Shown here: one piece after another, positions 2,302 through 27,003 of the stretch
How the letters are laid out: each line of letters begins with the position of its first letter
Position numbering within the stretch: the first letter of the stretch is position 1
IMG/VR virus record: IMGVR_UViG_2563366932_000014
Source of the DNA: a virus
Taxonomy: Duplodnaviria > Heunggongvirae > Uroviricota > Caudoviricetes
DNA: 42,975 nucleotides
Strand: one strand, 5' to 3'
Position numbers and translations under genes: made by a program
The notes under the pieces: generated by a model
The model's input: only the letters and a program-made list of their open reading frames with translations
Databases searched by the model: none
What the model was told of the DNA's origin: nothing

Positions 2302-2715
2302 TAGACTGGCCCCCTGAATCTCCAGACAACCAATATCACTTATTTAAGTGATAGTCTTAATACTAGTTTTTAGACTAGTCATTGGAGAGCAGATGATTGA
2401 TGTCTTAGGACCGGAGAAACGCAGACGGCGTACCACACAGGAAAAGATCGCAATTGTTCAGCAGAGCTTTGAACCAGGGATGACGGTCTCCCTCGTTGCC
2501 CGGCAACACGGTGTGGCAGCCAGCCAGTTATTTCTCTGGCGTAAGCAATACCAGGAAGGAAGTCTTACTGCTGTCGCCGCCGGAGAACAGGTTGTTCCTG
2601 CCTCTGAACTTGCTGCCGCCATGAAGCAGATTAAAGAACTCCAGCGCCTGCTCGGCAAGAAAACGATGGAAAATGAACTCCTCAAAGAAGCCGTTGAATA
2701 TGGACGGGCAAAAAA

Positions 2716-3735
<1,020 letters not shown>

Positions 3736-4675: not shown

Positions 4676-6625
4676 ATGATTGTTCTAAATCAGATTAACT
4701 CCTCACTTTTGTACAATGTCGCTTACAGGTATACCATGAAATCCGAGACGCTAACTGTCCAACAACTTTTTCAAGACCGCCGACAATACTGTGTTCCATT
4801 CTATCAACGTGCCTATGTATGGACTCAGCAAGACCAGTGGTCAGCTCTACTGGAGGATATCCTAGAGAAAGTACAATCCCGGCTCTCGGGTACAAAACCA
4901 ACTCCCCATTTCCTTGGTGCGGTTGTACTGGAACCTCAATCAAAAAAAGGATTATTAGGTGTAGATTCCATACATATTATTGATGGTCAGCAACGATTGA
5001 CCACTCTTCAATATGTTCTGGCATCCATCCGATTAGCATTACGTGCTACGGATCTTTCCAGCTTAGAGGCTCTCATTTCGCCTTGCCTGAAAAACTCAAA
5101 CGAAGACACAATGCGAAATAAAGAAGTAGAACGCTTCAAACTGTGGCCAACTTTTCGGGATCAAACTCATTTTATTCAAAGTTTTAATGTTGAAAATATT
5201 GACGATCTCCGGGACGTATTCTCTGATAGTTTCACGCAGCATGGTACGTTGCGTAAGCATTTTAATCACCCGCCATCACTAGAAGCATTATGTTTTTTTA
5301 CTGAAGCCTTTATAAAATGGATTAAAATAGAAAACCACTCACCACAAGAAAATGCTGTAGCTCTAATTGAGGCTGTCTTAACAGATCTGAAACTGGTAAG
5401 CATATTTCTCGAAGCTGAAGATGATGCCCAAATAATTTTTGAAACATTAAATGGGCGAGGGGCGGAACTTCATGCTACGGATCTTATTCGCAACTATATC
5501 TTTATGTGCGCTGAGCATGAAAATATTAATGCTATTGAATTATATGAAAATGAGTGGAAGAGCTTTGAAGATAAATACTGGTCGGAAAAACAACGCCGTG
5601 GACGTATTAATAAACCACGCATGGAGTGGCTAGTACATGCGACATTGCAATCAGAAAGGCAACGTGAAATTGATCTGTCTCGCCTTTACAATGAGTATCG
5701 TGATTATGTAAGTAAGGACTTGTCTTCACAACGAGCAGATCTGCAAGTAAAGCGCCTCAAACAATATGCATCACAATATAAAGAATTGGTTGATGGTTTT
5801 GGCACAACCCCCATCTCACACTTTGGATATCGCATCGCAGACTATGATGTGACGACACTTTATCCGCTTGCTTTGTTCATTTCGATAGCTAACATCGCTG
5901 ATGATGAGAAAGCAGCCATGTATAATGATCTTGTCTCCTACGTAGTACGAAGAGCCGTATGTGGCCTGACGCCAAAGAATTACAACAATGTATTTATGAA
6001 TGTATTGCGGCACTTGGCTAAAACGGAAATTTCCAGTGTTGAGTTACGTAATATCCTCAATAACTTAAATGGCGAAGCCTCACGTTGGCCTGGTGACTCA
6101 GAATTTCTCAACGCTTGCATCAATGCTCCACTTTATCCTGGCAGGCTCGACGCACCGAAAATGCGCTCAATGTTAACGGAACTTGAAAGAGAACTTTGTC
6201 GCCAAGTAAAGACAGAAAAGCCTGATGTTCCAAATCTTTCTAATCTCGATATCGATCATCTTATGCCTCAAAGTTGGTATTCCTGTTGGCCTCTCGAAAA
6301 TGGTCGTATGGTGACAAATTCAGATGCTACGGTATTGAACCAAATTGTTCTGTCTGGAACCGATCTTACCCCTGAACAGCTACTGGTAAGGAAACGGCAA
6401 CAAGCGATATCTACTTTGGGAAATCTAACTTTGCTTAACCTTAGCGTAAACCGTTCTGTTCAGAATGCTGTATTTCTGAAAAAACGTGATGCTCTCATCG
6501 TCCACACCAATCTACGACTGAACATTCCACTTATAGTTAAGGATAAATGGGATGAGGATGAAATCCTGGAGCGGGGTAAAAAGTTGGGGGAAATTGCATT
6601 GAAAGTATGGCCAAAACACGATTAA
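4676..6625 (+). CDS. GmrSD-family (DUF262 N-terminal, DUF1524/HNH-like C-terminal) putative type IV modification-dependent restriction endonuclease
   Basis: 649-aa ORF; N-terminal ..FYQRAYVW.. and DGQQR motif; C-terminal ..DIDHLMPQS.. and ..NLSVNRSVQN.. His-Me finger-like; AT-rich by inspection; start may be the ATG at 4736. Confidence 0.65.
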   Translation: MIVLNQINSSLLYNVAYRYTMKSETLTVQQLFQDRRQYCVPFYQRAYVWTQQDQWSALLEDILEKVQSRLSGTKPTPHFLGAVVLEPQSKKGLLGVDSIHIIDGQQRLTTLQYVLASIRLALRATDLSSLEALISPCLKNSNEDTMRNKEVERFKLWPTFRDQTHFIQSFNVENIDDLRDVFSDSFTQHGTLRKHFNHPPSLEALCFFTEAFIKWIKIENHSPQENAVALIEAVLTDLKLVSIFLEAEDDAQIIFETLNGRGAELHATDLIRNYIFMCAEHENINAIELYENEWKSFEDKYWSEKQRRGRINKPRMEWLVHATLQSERQREIDLSRLYNEYRDYVSKDLSSQRADLQVKRLKQYASQYKELVDGFGTTPISHFGYRIADYDVTTLYPLALFISIANIADDEKAAMYNDLVSYVVRRAVCGLTPKNYNNVFMNVLRHLAKTEISSVELRNILNNLNGEASRWPGDSEFLNACINAPLYPGRLDAPKMRSMLTELERELCRQVKTEKPDVPNLSNLDIDHLMPQSWYSCWPLENGRMVTNSDATVLNQIVLSGTDLTPEQLLVRKRQQAISTLGNLTLLNLSVNRSVQNAVFLKKRDALIVHTNLRLNIPLIVKDKWDEDEILERGKKLGEIALKVWPKHD

Positions 6626-6649
6626 TGCAATTAATAAAATGATTATAGT

Positions 6650-6669
6650 GGCCTTACATTAGTAAGGCC
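6650..6669 (+). terminator. hairpin downstream of the GmrSD-like gene (possible terminator)
   Basis: ggccttac atta gtaaggcc; no clean T-run follows. Confidence 0.3.
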
Positions 6670-6720
6670 GCTACTCACTATTAAATACTTTAATTTGCAT
6701 CAAGAACAGCAGTGTCAGCC

Positions 6721-6849
6721 CTAGGTCTCGGACTTTGTACCGCTTATCTTGTCTTCAAAAATCAGCTCGCATCCTGCACAGTTCAGCGCATTACGTTGTA
6801 GATCTGTGTTCTGGTCATTTGTTGACACACGTACATAGCCAATAAGCAT
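6721..6849 (-). pseudogene. truncated 5' remnant of a Pin/Gin/Cin-type serine DNA invertase gene
   Basis: minus strand encodes MLIGYVRVSTNDQNTDLQRNALNCAGCELIFEDKISGT.., then the match is lost and a stop follows; the remaining ~150 codons of an invertase are absent. Confidence 0.7.
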
Positions 6850-6903
6850 GGTAGATCTCCCTGACAAAAGCAGGAATGATGCCATTTGCTCGTTATTTCT
6901 GCA

Positions 6904-6929
6904 TTTTCATAAACGTTGGTTTGGGAGAA
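6904..6929. repeat. 26-bp hix/gix-like inversion crossover site, promoter-distal
   Basis: ttttcataaacg tt ggtttgggagaa; right half-site is the exact reverse complement of the left half-site of the site at 8831-8856; central dinucleotide TT versus AA. Confidence 0.65.
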
Positions 6930-7370
6930 GCGGCAAAACGGAATGTGGGCAACGGGGAAAACCAAATCCCTGATATGTCTTTCTGGACGGTTACTGGTGG
7001 CAATGGAAATTTTGTGATTCGTCAACCTGACGGGCTAATCATTCAGATGGTTACTGTAAGTATAAGCGGCCCAGTGGCGATGAATGGAATGACTGATAAT
7101 GCTTATGCCATCACAGGTTCTAATAAGTCTTATATTGCCACAGCCACATTGCCCTTTGTATTTCCTAATAAGGTGCTGGGCGTTATCCCTCTGGTATCAA
7201 CAACAGCTTATGGTGGTGTATCCAGTAATATTACAGGTTCATACGCGACGGCGGTTTGTTCTTTTGCCGCTGTCAGGGGGAATAATACGATTGTGTTCAA
7301 AGTCGACAAACCACTGAATGCAGCCTTTCCTTCAGATACCAGCGTCTCAGCGTTAATCATTGGACGGTAA
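6918..7370 (+). CDS. promoterless alternative tail-fibre C-terminal cassette (Sv'-like)
   Basis: frame is open from the crossover site; in-silico inversion would fuse it in frame to the constant N-terminal part (..ALENLGLGE) of the tail-fibre gene. Confidence 0.6.
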   Translation, partial: GLGEAAKRNVGNGENQIPDMSFWTVTGGNGNFVIRQPDGLIIQMVTVSISGPVAMNGMTDNAYAITGSNKSYIATATLPFVFPNKVLGVIPLVSTTAYGGVSSNITGSYATAVCSFAAVRGNNTIVFKVDKPLNAAFPSDTSVSALIIGR

Positions 7371-7372
7371 TA

Positions 7373-7816
7373 ATGAACTCAGTATTCTTTTCACCCGGAA
7401 GTAAAAGTTTTTATCTGCAAGAATTGTTTCCAGAATATGAGGATGCGGGAACGCTTCCTGATGATGTTATTGAAATTACCAGAGAAACATATGAGCAATT
7501 TCTTGGTCTGCATCCAGAAGGGAAAGAAATTGGCGCTGACAGTTCAGGACGGCCAGTATGGATTAATTCCCCACCCCCTTCAAAAGAGGATGAGGTGTTG
7601 ACGGCTGAAATGAAAAAAATATCTTTGGTTTCAGAAGTCAATACCTACATCAATACCCATCAGTGGCCTGGCAAAGCTGCTATTGGTCGTCTGAAAGGCG
7701 AGGAACTGGCGCAATATAATTCGTGGCTGGATTATCTGGACGCACTGGAACTGGTCGATACTTCCTGTGCGCCAGATATTGAATGGCCTACGCCTCCGGC
7801 AGTTCAGGCCAGATGA
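7373..7816 (+). CDS. alternative tail-fibre assembly protein (U'-like)
   Basis: 147-aa ORF right after the Sv' cassette; C-terminal ..WPTPPAVQAR resembles the tail-fibre assembly protein family; its 3' end overlaps the convergent assembly gene. Confidence 0.65.
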   Translation: MNSVFFSPGSKSFYLQELFPEYEDAGTLPDDVIEITRETYEQFLGLHPEGKEIGADSSGRPVWINSPPPSKEDEVLTAEMKKISLVSEVNTYINTHQWPGKAAIGRLKGEELAQYNSWLDYLDALELVDTSCAPDIEWPTPPAVQAR

Positions 7817-8390
7817 CATCCGGCGCTGTGCTGGTATTTGTTGCCGTCACCGCGTCAATGTAATCCAGCACAGCGTTAAGCCGGGTTGTTTCTGCCTGCA
7901 TCAGCTTCCGTCCGGCCTGTAATTTCAGCTGAATCAGACCGATGGAAGCCATTGCAGCATCAATCAGTGACTGACGCTGTGCTTCTGCCGCGTCTACTGC
8001 GGCGCTATGCTGTGCCTCAGTATCGGTCACCCATTTCTCACCATCCCATTTATCGTATGGCGTTAATGGGGCAATAGTGGTTGTATTTTCGGGGTAATCA
8101 CCCGGTGCTGTGATTTGTTTTGATTCTCCCGTTTCGGTGTTATAGACGATTTCACCGCGATGGTCTGGCACATATTCCCATGAATTTAAATTCACAGAAC
8201 GACAGATAGCATAACCCGCCTTATGTATACCTGGTGCATCCAGACAGGAATATGCCGGGATACCAACACCAACGGCAAGATATTCACTTGAAGTGGAAAT
8301 ATATTCCCGAGTTTCACCATCATAGTTATAAACGGTAATATCCCCTGCCTTTGTAGCAACAAGTCCACTATTTAATATTGCTTTATCCAT
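7788..8390 (-). CDS. tail-fibre assembly protein (Tfa/U-like)
   Basis: 200-aa ORF directly downstream of the tail-fibre gene. Confidence 0.7.
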   Translation of the reverse strand: MDKAILNSGLVATKAGDITVYNYDGETREYISTSSEYLAVGVGIPAYSCLDAPGIHKAGYAICRSVNLNSWEYVPDHRGEIVYNTETGESKQITAPGDYPENTTTIAPLTPYDKWDGEKWVTDTEAQHSAAVDAAEAQRQSLIDAAMASIGLIQLKLQAGRKLMQAETTRLNAVLDYIDAVTATNTSTAPDVIWPELPEA

Positions 8391-9133
8391 TATGCTGCTC
8401 TCACGATATAGTTAAATGCAATGTTGCGTGGACGGGTATCGACGGGGTTAACGGCCACTGTACCCGACACGGACTGGTCATTACCGTTGCTAACGGTAAT
8501 GTTACTACTGGTTGATCCAATCCCTACTGAATCGGTAAATTTAGCACCTGAGCCGCTCAAAGTTCCCGAGATGATAGCTAGCTCCACATAAAAAGTACCT
8601 ACAGTTGGCTCTTGTGTTGACAGCACCGCACGCCTTGAATCAACGCCGCGCCCATCATCCCAGCCACGAATAAACTCACCACGTAAATCAGGCAATTTAT
8701 TTGTCGGATAAGCCTTTGCCAGTTCCGGGTATTCTTCAGCAGAAAAAGCCGCACCGTTGCATTTCAGCCAGCCTGTTGGCGGTGTGGCTGAAGGCCATGG
8801 AACAGGCACACCAACAGGTAATGCAGAGCCTTCTCCCAAACCAAGGTTTTCGAGAGCCGTTTTCACCGTGCCGTCCGATTTGATATCGCTAAACGGATTC
8901 TTGCGGCTTAACAGCAGCGCACGAAGCGCGGTAAGCAGCTGGTCGTGCCGCGCCTTCTCCAGACTGGCACCGGATGCCTCCACCACGCTGCAGAGTTCTT
9001 CCTGCAACATGTCAAAGTAGTCATCATCCAGATCGGTGGCAGGCGTGCCTGTCTGGGGGTTACCACGGGTAAAACCGTTCTTACCCGCGCCGAACTTATC
9101 CTTCTGCGCGGTTTTCGTGTCTATACGATGCAT
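8390..9133 (-). CDS. tail-fibre protein (constant N-terminus plus currently expressed variable C-terminus)
   Basis: 247-aa ORF with tail-collar-like segment ..[18 protein letters not shown]..; crossover site lies inside it. Confidence 0.7.
8831..8856. repeat. 26-bp hix/gix-like inversion crossover site inside the tail-fibre gene
   Basis: ttctcccaaacc aa ggttttcgagag, of the form ..AAACC-NN-GGTTT..; encodes ..LENLGLGE.. Confidence 0.65.
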
Positions 9134-9136
9134 GGA

Positions 9137-9721
9137 TTACTCCGGATATTTAAAAATTACGTAGGTATGCGAAGGGCAGAGTTTGTTAAGCACACATTCG
9201 ACGACGGTGTCGCCCCAGATACGCAGCGCGGAATCACAGGGATCGCCACATGTCATCCAGGTGCTGTTGGTGGCGGCTGGCATGTTGACCTGCCAGTAAT
9301 ACCGCCATTCCGGCGCATTCACCGCGTCAGTACAGGCCGATGAGCAGGTGAACGTGCTTTTGTCGTATCGCGTGATGGTGGCGTCTGGTCTGCCCAGGGC
9401 AGCAAGCTGTGCAAGGTAAAAATCCTCATTGATGCCGCCCGCCAGGTTAACCTTCGCATCCAGTCGTTGCTGACGCTGGCGAAGGGTCTGTGTTCCTGCG
9501 GGAATACATTCATCCGGCAGGCCGCACAGACGCTCCCAGCGATTTATCAGTTCGGTGGTGGTGCGCGGATCCAGCTCCCGCATCAGGGCATCCGCACGCT
9601 GATGAACGCGGGTTAATGACTGTGCCGCACCGGCAATCGCCGGATCGCTGGCTGACCACGCCGGACCGGGCGGCAGCAGTGCCGACAACAGACGGATGTA
9701 ATCATCGTTTGTCACGCCCAT
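9137..9721 (-). CDS. tail/baseplate protein (Mu gp48-like)
   Basis: position between baseplate J and tail fibre; family call from recalled similarity. Confidence 0.5.
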
Positions 9722-10770
9722 GAAATCGTCCCCAGAACCGCCAGTTCATTTTTTGCAATGGAGATATTTTCCGCCGGTGCAAGCAATTGATGGCTGTATT
9801 CCCCGTTCGCACCGGAAATCGCTTCACTGATACGCGACACCTTCAGTTCTCCCTGCGGATAACCATCACGCAGCAGGAACGAACGCAACTCCGCGGTGAT
9901 GGCAGCCCGTATTTCCGGTGTATCCGGCGTCACACGGATATGAAAATCCACCGTATGCGCCACCGGCCTGAACACATACAAATCAGAGCCTGCCACCGGG
10001 GCCAGTGGCCCGATATGTTGTCTTGCCGCCGTTTCCGTTGATTCTTCCGGAATGGGATTAATCAGGTCACTGCTGGCAATCATCACACCGACAGTCCCCG
10101 TTCCCATCCAGTGACGGTATGCCCATGCGCGGGTAATGCCGGGCAATTCTTTAGCCCAGACAACATAGTCCCCGTCAGCCCCGCCCTGAGGCGTCCAGTA
10201 ATACCGCTCAATGACGCGGGCGCGCCACGTTTCCAGCTCTTCAGTATCAAATCCACCTGTCAGAGTGTCTGCCACGCCGGAAGACGGCAGACCATTAACC
10301 GGCGTGACCAGGATTAATGACGTACCGTCGTCAGCGTTACCGACCGCGCCTGCACTTGAGCAGGCGATCGGCACGCGCAGGACACCACCGGCGCTGGTTG
10401 CATCGGCAGTTGCCGTGTACTGAATCAGGTCATCGCGCTGAATAACACTCCCGGCGGTCACCTTCAGGCCATCGCTGACGCCTTCCCAGCGCATATACCC
10501 GCTGGCAGTCGTGGCCCCCTTGCGCGGACACCGTTTCATCGCAGCATGTCGCGCCAGCCAGGACTCATCGCACAGGTCAGGCAGCATGTTCATTGCCAGA
10601 TAATCGATGTACCCGTAAACCGTATGCAGCGCCGCCGCATACACCTTTGCCCGCACGTCTTCATCCATGCGCCGGAGCGTGTCGCTGACGTCCAGCCTGG
10701 CGAATAAATCGTTACGGAGCATACTGATATTTTCTGCCAGCGTCGGGCGCTGAAATTCACTGTCCGCCAT
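9712..10770 (-). CDS. baseplate J-like protein (Mu gp47-like)
   Basis: 352-aa ORF in baseplate gene order. Confidence 0.65.
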
Positions 10771-20476: not shown

Positions 20477-21682
20477 TTACGCCGCTGCAATCTTCAGCAG
20501 TTTGATGGCCTGCGAATCGACCAGCATCCCGCCGGTGCGCTTGGTGGTATAAAAACCGACAAACGGTTTATTGGTGTACGGGTCACGCAGAATGCGGGTG
20601 CCGATACGGTCAACGATGGTGTAACCCCGTTTGAAGTTACCAAATGCAATGGCTTTCGCATCAGCGGCGATATCCGGCATCTGTTCGTTTTCAGCGATAC
20701 CGTAACCCGCCAGAGAGGACGGCTGCCCCAGTTCCAGCTCCGGACGCCACAGATAGTTACCCTCGCTGTCTTTAAGCAGACGGATGGCAAACAGGCTGTT
20801 GTTGTTCATCATGAACTTCGCGCCAGTGCGGTGTGCCTTACGCAGCGTGTAAATCAGTTTGATAATGGCGTCTGCGGTCACCGCCGTCGCTTCGCCGGAT
20901 ACAATATGCTGAAGTTTGCCGAACGCCCGGACCTTATCGGTTTCATCAGTGGATTCATACGCCAGGAACCCTTTCGGCTTCTTGGTACCATCGCCGGTGG
21001 TAAAGGCAATTTCTTCCTGTTCGGCAAATTCGGTTGCCAGCTCGCTGTTGATCCATGCTTCCACGTTGAAAAAGGCATCATCCAGCATTTTCTGGGTGGC
21101 CTGCGGGTTACCGTAGATTTCCCCCATGAAAGGTTCAATCAGGCCCAGTTTTGAGGTGGCAGTCTGGGAGCGCGCGTCAGTCTCGCCAACCCATCCGGAA
21201 GCCGTGCCGCCCAGATTCACCAGTTTTTTGTAGTCGGAACCACCAACGGTGATCACCGTGGCTTCCTGGCGCATCACCACTTCATCTTTCAGCAGGGTGA
21301 GAATGTTGCGATCCAGTGCTTCCGGCACGGCATAGCCGCCGTCTTCATCGGTGCCCACCTGCAATGCCTTGCGCTCCAGATCGCGCAGACCATCTTCACG
21401 GCCTTTACGCAGGAAGCCCACAAACGCTTCTTTATGCTCGGTGGCCAGTTTATTTTGCGCACCACCTGCCGGACGTTTCAGCTCAAGCAGCTCTTTTTCA
21501 AGATCGCTTTTGAGGTTTTCCAGCTCGCTGAGTTTCCCGTTCAGGGTTTCCACCTGCCCGGCAAGTTTGCCTTTTTCCTGCTCAATCGCATCCACGCGCT
21601 TGTCGTTCTTTGCTTTGAAGTCGTCAAACTTCTGCTGCAGCTCCTGCGCGACCTGTTCGACATCTTTAATATCAACCGCCAT
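20477..21682 (-). CDS. major capsid protein (HK97 fold)
   Basis: 401-aa ORF with N-terminal coiled-coil delta-like region and capsid-like body, after the protease gene. Confidence 0.85.
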   Translation of the reverse strand: MAVDIKDVEQVAQELQQKFDDFKAKNDKRVDAIEQEKGKLAGQVETLNGKLSELENLKSDLEKELLELKRPAGGAQNKLATEHKEAFVGFLRKGREDGLRDLERKALQVGTDEDGGYAVPEALDRNILTLLKDEVVMRQEATVITVGGSDYKKLVNLGGTASGWVGETDARSQTATSKLGLIEPFMGEIYGNPQATQKMLDDAFFNVEAWINSELATEFAEQEEIAFTTGDGTKKPKGFLAYESTDETDKVRAFGKLQHIVSGEATAVTADAIIKLIYTLRKAHRTGAKFMMNNNSLFAIRLLKDSEGNYLWRPELELGQPSSLAGYGIAENEQMPDIAADAKAIAFGNFKRGYTIVDRIGTRILRDPYTNKPFVGFYTTKRTGGMLVDSQAIKLLKIAAA

Positions 21683-26562: not shown

Positions 26563-27003
26563 ATGAGTATCCCCAGTTTAGATGTTCATAAAGTTGTTAA
26601 GTGCGCAGAGCATAAAAAGGCTTTAGATGCAATATCTCTCAAACTTAAGAATAACATTATTGACTCAAGCTCTGAATACGATTTTCTTGGCGACACAATA
26701 ATTTTCAATAAAGATAAAAAAAATAGGTTAACCCTCAAACTTTCAACATATGAACTAGAACTTATTTTCAAAGAAACACTGCTAGTCATTGATGAAGCTC
26801 CTGTATTGAAGTTTGCTGCCATTGACCCAACCGATGAAAATAACAACGAGCTGATTGATTTATTTTTATCCAAAGGTGGATTTATTTATATTAGAGAATA
26901 CAAATCCGAGCCACATTATGAGTATGGCGACACTTCTCTATTTTTACATATACTTGACGCTACTCTTAAAGAGCTTAAATCTGCAAACAAAATATCCTAT
27001 TAA
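26563..27003 (+). CDS. hypothetical protein, AT-rich insertion transcribed against the late operon
   Basis: ORF with AGGTGG RBS before the ATG at 26563 (listed ORF starts at 26500); very AT-rich by inspection; no recognisable family. Confidence 0.5.
   Translation: MSIPSLDVHKVVKCAEHKKALDAISLKLKNNIIDSSSEYDFLGDTIIFNKDKKNRLTLKLSTYELELIFKETLLVIDEAPVLKFAAIDPTDENNNELIDLFLSKGGFIYIREYKSEPHYEYGDTSLFLHILDATLKELKSANKISY

Follow-up and report, generated by a model that had tools for sequence, protein, structure and literature searches.

Can a tail-fibre inversion switch still be turned once its own invertase gene has been lost? The question is raised by a locus in the window, by which we mean the whole 42,975-nucleotide stretch of the tailed-phage record IMGVR_UViG_2563366932_000014, in which a minus-strand fibre gene runs through one of two inverted 26-bp sites while the invertase gene (pin) beside the other site is cut short. 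The window corresponds approximately to UTI89 coordinates 2,900,429-2,942,000, and the host element is a complete (~41 kb) e14/SfV-like prophage adjoining ssrA in Escherichia coli of sequence type 95 (ST95). The segment between the sites inverts at the population level, both orientations being present in near-identical genomes. We propose that the region is very probably an orphaned Pin-type fibre inversion switch (Gin/Cin/Hin/Pin family) of this prophage, which can be flipped in trans by a related invertase. The switch has flipped, most likely through an invertase borrowed from another phage.

Both invertible tail-fibre cassettes and cross-acting invertases were already familiar in the 1980s, and the kind of system is not new; an invertase-less P segment that has been flipped repeatedly in a major pathogenic clone represents a modestly new variant. 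The locus is of interest as a natural switch that lacks its own enzyme yet is otherwise intact, in its sites, spacer, enhancer-like remnant and both cassettes, and that has turned at least twice in ST95 (UTI89, IHE3034, S88 and APEC O1).

Two inverted sites and a truncated invertase gene

The left crossover site reads TTTTCATAAACG/TT/GGTTTGGGAGAA and the right site, which falls in the minus-strand fibre gene, reads TTCTCCCAAACC/AA/GGTTTTCGAGAG. An earlier description made from the sequence alone, here called the original prediction, had proposed two 26-bp inverted sites with an identical 12-bp half-site and complementary AA/TT centres, one of them inside the fibre gene at the codons for LENLGLGE, and alignment bears this out. 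As inverted copies the sites match at 21 of 26 positions, including an exact 15-bp run over the centre and the adjoining inner half-site, which is identical in the two. With both read in one direction the centre is AA in each, giving the two inverted, imperfectly palindromic 26-bp sites with identical 2-bp cores that characterize the Fis- and enhancer-dependent serine invertase systems (Din family). Among the inverted repeats of region 6600-9200 this pair ranks first (20 nt, 95%), and when the 2.6-kb region was shuffled 500 times, an exact inverted repeat of at least 15 nt with arms at least 100 nt apart arose twice. The left site is the same at 26 of 26 positions as the invertase-proximal site of a P2-like prophage in strain AH21G053 and varies at 1 of 26 positions among five truncated-pin loci, and exact copies of the right site occur in UTI89 and KE58. 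The spacer between the left site and the invertase remnant, 67 bp long, is intact.

In-silico inversion, with 6916-8844 reverse-complemented, followed by re-translation gives a fibre open reading frame (ORF) of 247 aa in either state, the gp53-like cassette becoming fused in frame to the constant 101 residues. The Pfam domains found between the sites (Table 1) likewise support the predicted layout, a variable C-terminus with its assembly gene on the minus strand opposite an alternative pair on the plus strand.

That the invertase is truncated, with no cognate enzyme left, had also been anticipated. The minus-strand invertase ORF 6721-6885 covers only positions 2-47 of the 145-position Resolvase profile. 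Compared with the intact pinE of strain KE58, the first 122 nt are identical at 121 positions, after which the two diverge abruptly, and the sequence beyond the break is that preceding the convergent GmrSD gene. Where a functional serine invertase gene would be expected beside the segment there are thus codons 1-41 only, extending to 189 bp from the left-site centre and labelled in RefSeq as 'recombinase family protein, incomplete, missing C-terminus'. Across the whole window no other serine recombinase is annotated, the only other recombinases being a tyrosine integrase and the IS2 transposase. Because pin is cut after nt 122, the prophage is unable to turn the segment on its own.

Both orientations occur in near-identical genomes

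The in-silico inverted sequence (2,601 bp, extending over the truncated pin into the end of GmrSD) was used as query against 5,426 complete E. coli genomes. The inverted form was found at full length and 99.2-100% identity in 23 complete ST95-type genomes, e.g. IHE3034, APEC O1 and PMV-1, all with the same GmrSD/pin truncation junction, and the orientation of the window in about 108 complete genomes at 99% identity or more, e.g. UTI89, S88, NU14 and ATCC 11775. In an independent collection the exact predicted inverted fibre protein is present on 382 public contigs and the present form on at least 1,000. In 72 genomes it is the Collar cassette that adjoins the remnant. The original prediction had left the switch either locked or dependent on an invertase supplied in trans; the 23 genomes and 382 contigs with the inverted form favor the latter alternative over the former.

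With the inversion undone, UTI89 and IHE3034 differ by one single-nucleotide polymorphism (SNP) in 42,601 bp, which lies outside the segment, and by nothing in the 27.9-kb prophage part. Such closeness bears on the idea of a locked fossil, in which no inversion has occurred since the truncation and the two states derive from independent truncations or from import of the segment by homologous recombination. In agreement with that idea, most genomes of one strain or sub-lineage share a single orientation (the four UTI89 records; the ATCC 11775 and JCM 20135 records), and many genomes have no identified helper. However, the truncation junction is base-for-base equal in both orientations and at four attachment sites, and the single SNP between UTI89 and IHE3034 leaves the segment itself untouched. 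Import fares no better: identity to the in-silico inversion is 99.2-100% for the inverted ST95-type copies but only 95-98% for non-ST95 relatives, which excludes import from the latter. We consider a locked fossil extremely improbable. The ST95 ancestor already had the pin truncation, and the flips came after it.

How often the segment has turned is less evident from the locus itself. UTI89, IHE3034, APEC O1 and S88 show private differences only over the 27.9 kb of prophage, and in the 28-43 kb round the locus these four genomes have no phylogenetically informative SNPs by which independent inversions could be counted. In the published core-genome tree, S88 and APEC O1 fall in a clade apart from UTI89, IHE3034 and PMV-1 (PMC6180223). 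Each ST95 clade of that tree hence contains both orientations, implying at least two inversions since the ST95 ancestor, a figure that rests on the tree because the local differences are all private. Where otherwise identical genomes differ in the orientation of this locus, the difference is real biology and not assembly error.

Inversion could in principle also occur without any invertase, if the 15-20-bp inverted repeats recombined in a RecA-dependent or replication-associated manner. A crossover anywhere in the 15-bp identical run would yield a product indistinguishable from that of a site-specific event, and several inverted genomes lack another pin-like chromosomal locus. Repeats of 15-20 bp are, however, shorter than efficient homologous recombination usually needs. 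At least two events took place while the prophage copies came to differ by just 0-4 substitutions, plus single-base indels, per 28 kb, which points to a catalysed reaction. Moreover, pinE and pinE pinQ mutants of K-12 are locked in one orientation despite having the same repeats (PMC12529663), which is evidence against invertase-free flipping at these repeats. This route is accordingly very unlikely in our estimate.

The opposite extreme, continuous flipping in every carrier by a resident invertase, would make cultures of the window's strain mixed. Relevant here is that many public contigs start exactly at the central TT of the crossover site (TTGGTTTGGGAGAAGG...; loci L013-L015 and L031; SRR13520020, GCA_000326805.1, GCA_000351505.1). 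The partial proteins that begin at the site centre occupy 142 and 1,479 index blocks, the majority of them from contigs shorter than 2 kb (129 of the 142 blocks), and some contigs ending at the central dinucleotide also bear the truncated pin and GmrSD (L014 from SRR13520020, L015 and L031). The locus, in other words, breaks short-read assemblies exactly at the site centre, as would be expected from reads of both orientations or from a second copy in the other state. Mixed orientations give just such ends in an assembly graph, and UTI89, IHE3034 and other O18 strains have a second pin-like place by blastn. Nevertheless, a second prophage with the same cassette in the opposite state would produce these ends too, and the gp53-like allele is shared exactly with P2-like and pin-intact prophages; S88, ATCC 11775 and APEC O1 have no second pin-like place, and the one seen elsewhere may be a dead, pinH-like fragment. 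Continuous flipping is thus unlikely, though less so than the two preceding alternatives.

A candidate for a further site-mediated rearrangement, APEC IMT5155, in which homology begins exactly at the left site, proved instead to carry an IS66-family insertion in the spacer. In this strain (NZ_CP005930.1, ~804,599-807,214) ISCro1 lies between the pin remnant and the left site, GmrSD itself is cut by another IS66 copy, and the segment is in the inverted state with its left site ~2.7 kb from the enhancer-like region.

Proposed mechanism of inversion in trans

Based on this anatomy, we propose the following mechanism. On the minus strand, reading of the fibre gene proceeds from the baseplate operon through the right site and into one of the two cassettes, each of which encodes a variable C-terminus along with its own assembly chaperone. 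A serine invertase would bind both 26-bp sites, cut at the matching central dinucleotides and turn the 1.9-kb segment, so that the other cassette becomes joined in frame. The invertase gene of the prophage itself was lost past nt 122 when the GmrSD gene replaced its 3' part. As the sites, the 67-bp spacer and the enhancer-like 5' part are intact, any related invertase in the cell could flip the segment in trans, candidates being the invertase of a P2-like prophage, of P1 or of Mu, or a PinQ-like enzyme. Flipping would then be sporadic, not continuous, with a related invertase as the likely catalyst.

Precedents exist for such borrowing. Kutsukake et al. (2006) reportedly found Fin of Fels-2 acting on the Salmonella H segment. 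In K-12, PinQ of prophage Qin inverts the e14 P segment in trans, i.e. the invertase of one prophage flips a segment elsewhere that has compatible sites (PMC12529663). Both of these targets retain their own invertase (Hin and PinE, respectively), whereas the target in the window has none and would therefore depend wholly on supply in trans.

Candidate helpers are P2-like prophages, which are not the same element. They are represented by that of AH21G053, itself an ST95 strain, and by 'Escherichia phage P2' of O157:H43 T22 (KC618326), and have an invertible fibre region with a Din-family invertase, a spacer and invertase 5' end similar to those of the window, and related cassettes; in P2-like contexts the gp53-like cassette allele is identical to that of the window at the protein level. 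They differ in having a P2-type tail module and an intact invertase, of 197 aa beside the matching site in AH21G053 and of 188 aa in other copies. Prophages of the AH21G053 type are present in 546 of the 5,426 E. coli genomes.

Several observations weigh against our proposal. At blastn sensitivity, 7 of the 23 genomes with the inverted form yield no further pin-like match on the chromosome; nor is a second pin-like chromosomal locus detected in S88 and ATCC 11775, or a second pin-like place in APEC O1. Carriage of a second pin-like locus and the inverted state show no significant association (7/10 versus 13/40, Fisher p=0.067), and the locus counts are inflated by dead pinH-like fragments. The helper counts were obtained with chimeric blastn queries (a unique GmrSD anchor joined to pinE) and are unreliable, since 168-bp pinH-like fragments score and plasmids are separate records. 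Similarly, the second pin-like place in UTI89, IHE3034 and other O18 strains may be a dead fragment such as pinH. Two further points, on the enhancer-like region, are given below. Taken as it stands, the helper pattern would fit sporadic flips under a transient helper, followed by inheritance of the resulting state.

Independently of these counts, a 168-bp internal pin-like fragment, a pinH-type pseudogene next to ypjA in K-12, is widespread in E. coli chromosomes and gives blastn matches that can be mistaken for helper invertases.

The dependence of one prophage on another for phase variation becomes directly testable here in well-studied strains. We also considered whether the arrangement is itself selected, the 122-nt remnant being kept for its enhancer and the locus forming a 'slave' inverton that flips only in the company of an invertase-bearing phage (P2-like, P1 or Mu). 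Such selection of the GmrSD/truncated-pin arrangement seems doubtful; if real, it would couple receptor specificity, or a StfE2-like adsorption block exerted by ORF 6879-7370, to the presence of competing phages.

Relation to e14, Mu and SfV

The original prediction likened the cassette to the Mu G segment. The analogy of design stands, but judged by sequence the nearest relative of the switch is the P segment of e14 with its Pin invertase, not Mu G. We prefer e14 because the repeat core is the same, because pinE matches at 121 of 122 nt, and because the constant fibre part is 95% identical to K-12 e14 StfP residues 1-106. In e14 (stfP-tfaP / tfaE-stfE, pinE, mcrA) the inverted-repeat core is TTGGTTTGGGAGAAG, common to both elements (PMC12529663). 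Against the longer e14 core, TTGGTTTGGGAGAAGG / CCTTCTCCCAAACCAA, the right copy of the window matches at 16 of 16 bp and the left copy over 15 bp, its 16th base being set by the adjacent cassette. The gene order ymfQ, fibre gene, two tfa genes, silent cassette and pin is the same in both, and the window has the position typical of the P segment, between the ymfQ-stfP tail genes and pin, as well as a constant part homologous to StfP.

Differences from e14 concern mainly the invertase end and the cassettes. The e14 of strain KE58, at icd, has the same two cassettes at 94-95% identity, followed by intact pinE and mcrA. In the window, by contrast, pin breaks off after codon 41, and GmrSD stands in place of its 3' part and of mcrA, both of which are present there in KE58 and K-12 e14. 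Furthermore, e14 is a defective element at icd, whereas the prophage of the window is complete and lies at ssrA. Relative to K-12 e14, the gp53-like cassette has no significant match to the StfP C-terminus, and the Collar cassette shares just 60% identity with StfE. For the alternative assembly protein, identity to TfaP is 54%, chiefly at the C-terminus. Cassettes are mosaic across the e14-type family.

The Mu G segment with Gin, like the P1 C segment with Cin, follows the same logic of a constant fibre N-terminus served by two opposed cassettes, each with an assembly gene. Mu also has 26-bp sites and an invertase gene just outside the segment in common with the window, whose upstream baseplate genes are Mu-like; the Mu site and gin 5' region align to the window with conserved blocks, while the half-sequences of the sites differ. 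The Mu segment is larger (~3 kb) and has intact Gin, compared with 1.9 kb and no intact invertase in the window. The locus is hence analogous to the Sc / Sv-U / Sv'-U' arrangement of Mu with gin and Mu-like in design, but it is not a G segment, since it has no intact invertase and its sequence is e14-like.

The tail module connects the prophage to the serotype-converting Shigella phages SfV, SfII, SfIV and SfI, whose baseplate genes and constant fibre part are 97% identical to the window at the nucleotide level; the SfV family and the window have in common an HK97-type head and a Mu-type tail organization. Homology to the four phages ends at the right crossover site (window position 8830), which makes this site a mosaic boundary in the fibre gene. 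A homology search with the window detected neither an invertible segment nor a pin remnant in these phages.

The GmrSD/truncated-pin module and the enhancer-like region

Related prophages in four positions (ssrA, icd, the vicinity of paoD and a place next to another integrase) share the junction between GmrSD and pin base for base. The same junction at four sites implies a single truncation, after which the GmrSD/remnant module spread among e14-family prophages. These related truncated-pin prophages are 95-98% identical, some of them with decayed fibre genes. At the prophage end, in the position of mcrA in e14, the GmrSD/truncated-pin unit acts like a mobile module carrying a defence gene. The module (4676-6849) also occurs beside different baseplate modules.

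Within the remnant, two 15-mers with a G-N13-C pattern resembling the core of Fis sites (6814-6828 and 6765-6779) have their centres 95.5 and 144.5 bp from the left-site centre. They form the only G-N13-C pair with Hin-like spacing in the region, and both lie within blocks conserved in e14 pinE, the P2-like invertase and Mu gin. By comparison with the hin enhancer sequence we tentatively take them to be Fis cores. The Hin enhancer is 65 bp long with a Fis site at each end, lies ~100 bp from one crossover site and is active from kilobases away (PMC3798978); the position and 64-bp span of the enhancer-like region agree with this description. The stretch 6765-6828 may thus serve as a recombinational enhancer for an invertase supplied in trans. 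Over five truncated-pin loci, however, the remnant is not better conserved than its neighbours (13/122 versus 6/102 variable sites), so that selection for the enhancer is not demonstrated. This and the tentative nature of the Fis assignment are the remaining points that weigh against our proposal.

Between the GmrSD stop codon and the pin remnant, window positions 6646-6673 form a 12-bp inverted repeat with a 4-nt loop (TAGTGGCCTTAC ... GTAAGGCCGCTA). This hairpin looks like a terminator between the convergent genes; it is absent from the list returned by a simple terminator scan.

Fibre cassettes and the leader ORF

The coordinates of all features are collected in Table 1. The minus-strand late tail operon runs in the order Baseplate_J gene, Mu gp48/YmfQ homologue, fibre gene and Caudo_TAP gene.

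Table 1. Features of the inversion locus and adjoining genes, in window coordinates.
Feature	Position	Strand	Remarks
Left crossover site	6904-6929		pix/hix-like, 12+2+12 bp; adjoins invertase remnant; centre TT at 6916-6917
Right crossover site	8831-8856		within tail-fibre gene, codons LENLGLGE; centre AA at 8843-8844
Invertible segment	6916-8844		1,929 bp centre to centre; reverse-complementing gives the state of IHE3034, APEC O1 and 21 other complete genomes
pin invertase gene remnant	6727-6849	-	codons 1-41, then T and a stop; catalytically dead
Putative recombinational enhancer	6765-6828		two G-N13-C Fis-core-like 15-mers, 49 bp apart start to start
GmrSD-family (DUF262/DUF1524) type IV restriction gene	4676-6625	+	Pfam GmrSD_N and GmrSD_C; in place of e14 pin 3' part and mcrA
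Complete tail-fibre gene, present state	8390-9133	-	247 aa, Collar domain
Constant N-terminal fibre part	8845-9133	-	~97 codons to crossover centre; 101 aa to end of shared GLGE motif
Expressed variable C-terminus, Collar cassette	8390-8842	-	Pfam Collar, E=1.2e-15; 60% identity to K-12 StfE
tfaE-like assembly gene of expressed cassette	7788-8390	-	Pfam Caudo_TAP, E=4e-30; RefSeq annotation tfaE
Alternative, presently unexpressed variable C-terminus, gp53-like cassette	6918-7370	+	Pfam Gp53-like_C, 24.6 bits (cut-off 24.9)
Alternative tail-fibre assembly gene	7373-7816	+	Pfam Caudo_TAP, E=6e-28; dN/dS 0.20 versus KE58
Short leader	6879-6917	+	MPFARYFCIFINV and site-encoded GLGE; 17 aa; fused to whichever cassette faces the invertase remnant
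Baseplate_J gene	9712-10770	-	late tail operon
Mu gp48/YmfQ homologue	9137-9721	-	late tail operon

The original prediction had described the alternative C-terminus and its assembly gene as promoterless. This C-terminus belongs to the unexpressed cassette of the present state, but it is not strictly without an ORF of its own: fused to the leader that starts at 6879, it forms a 163-aa ORF (6879-7370), and both leader-cassette fusions are found as annotated proteins. A promoter scan of the spacer found no sigma-70-like promoter upstream of the leader ORF, and expression of the silent cassette is therefore unsupported. For StfE2, the K-12 counterpart of this ORF, a block of T2 adsorption has been reported (PMC12529663). 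If the leader-cassette ORF acted like StfE2, it would do so with cassette sequences that differ from those of K-12; orientation could then alter sensitivity to other phages, which would bear on phage therapy against extraintestinal pathogenic E. coli.

Compared with KE58, both tfa genes have a dN/dS (ratio of nonsynonymous to synonymous substitution rates) of ~0.2. This value says little on their use after the truncation, because the cassettes are mosaic and because the comparison does not single out invertase-less lineages.

Exact copies of the 150-aa gp53-like cassette also occur in truncated-pin prophages, in e14-like prophages whose 184-aa invertase is intact, and in P2-like prophages, where they are fused to P2-type fibres of 444-515 aa and accompany intact invertases of 188 aa. 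Hence, identical cassettes circulate among unrelated phages that share the 26-bp site.

Prophage setting

Elsewhere in the window, an IS2 copy at 2302-3632 (InsC and InsD ORFs; 1,331 bp plus a 5-bp target duplication) lies within a LEM-3-like GIY-YIG cargo gene; it is missing from UTI89 and most ST95 genomes. Among the matches listed, only CEA212U (NZ_CP166707.1) gives an unbroken alignment over the window's first 25 kb. Relative to UTI89, the window has a single-base insertion at 26723, which is intergenic and follows an HNH endonuclease gene, and SNPs at 20739, 27912 and 28508. In S88 a P2-like prophage (NC_011742.1, 2,818,029-2,832,219) is located in tandem between ssrA and the prophage that carries the switch.

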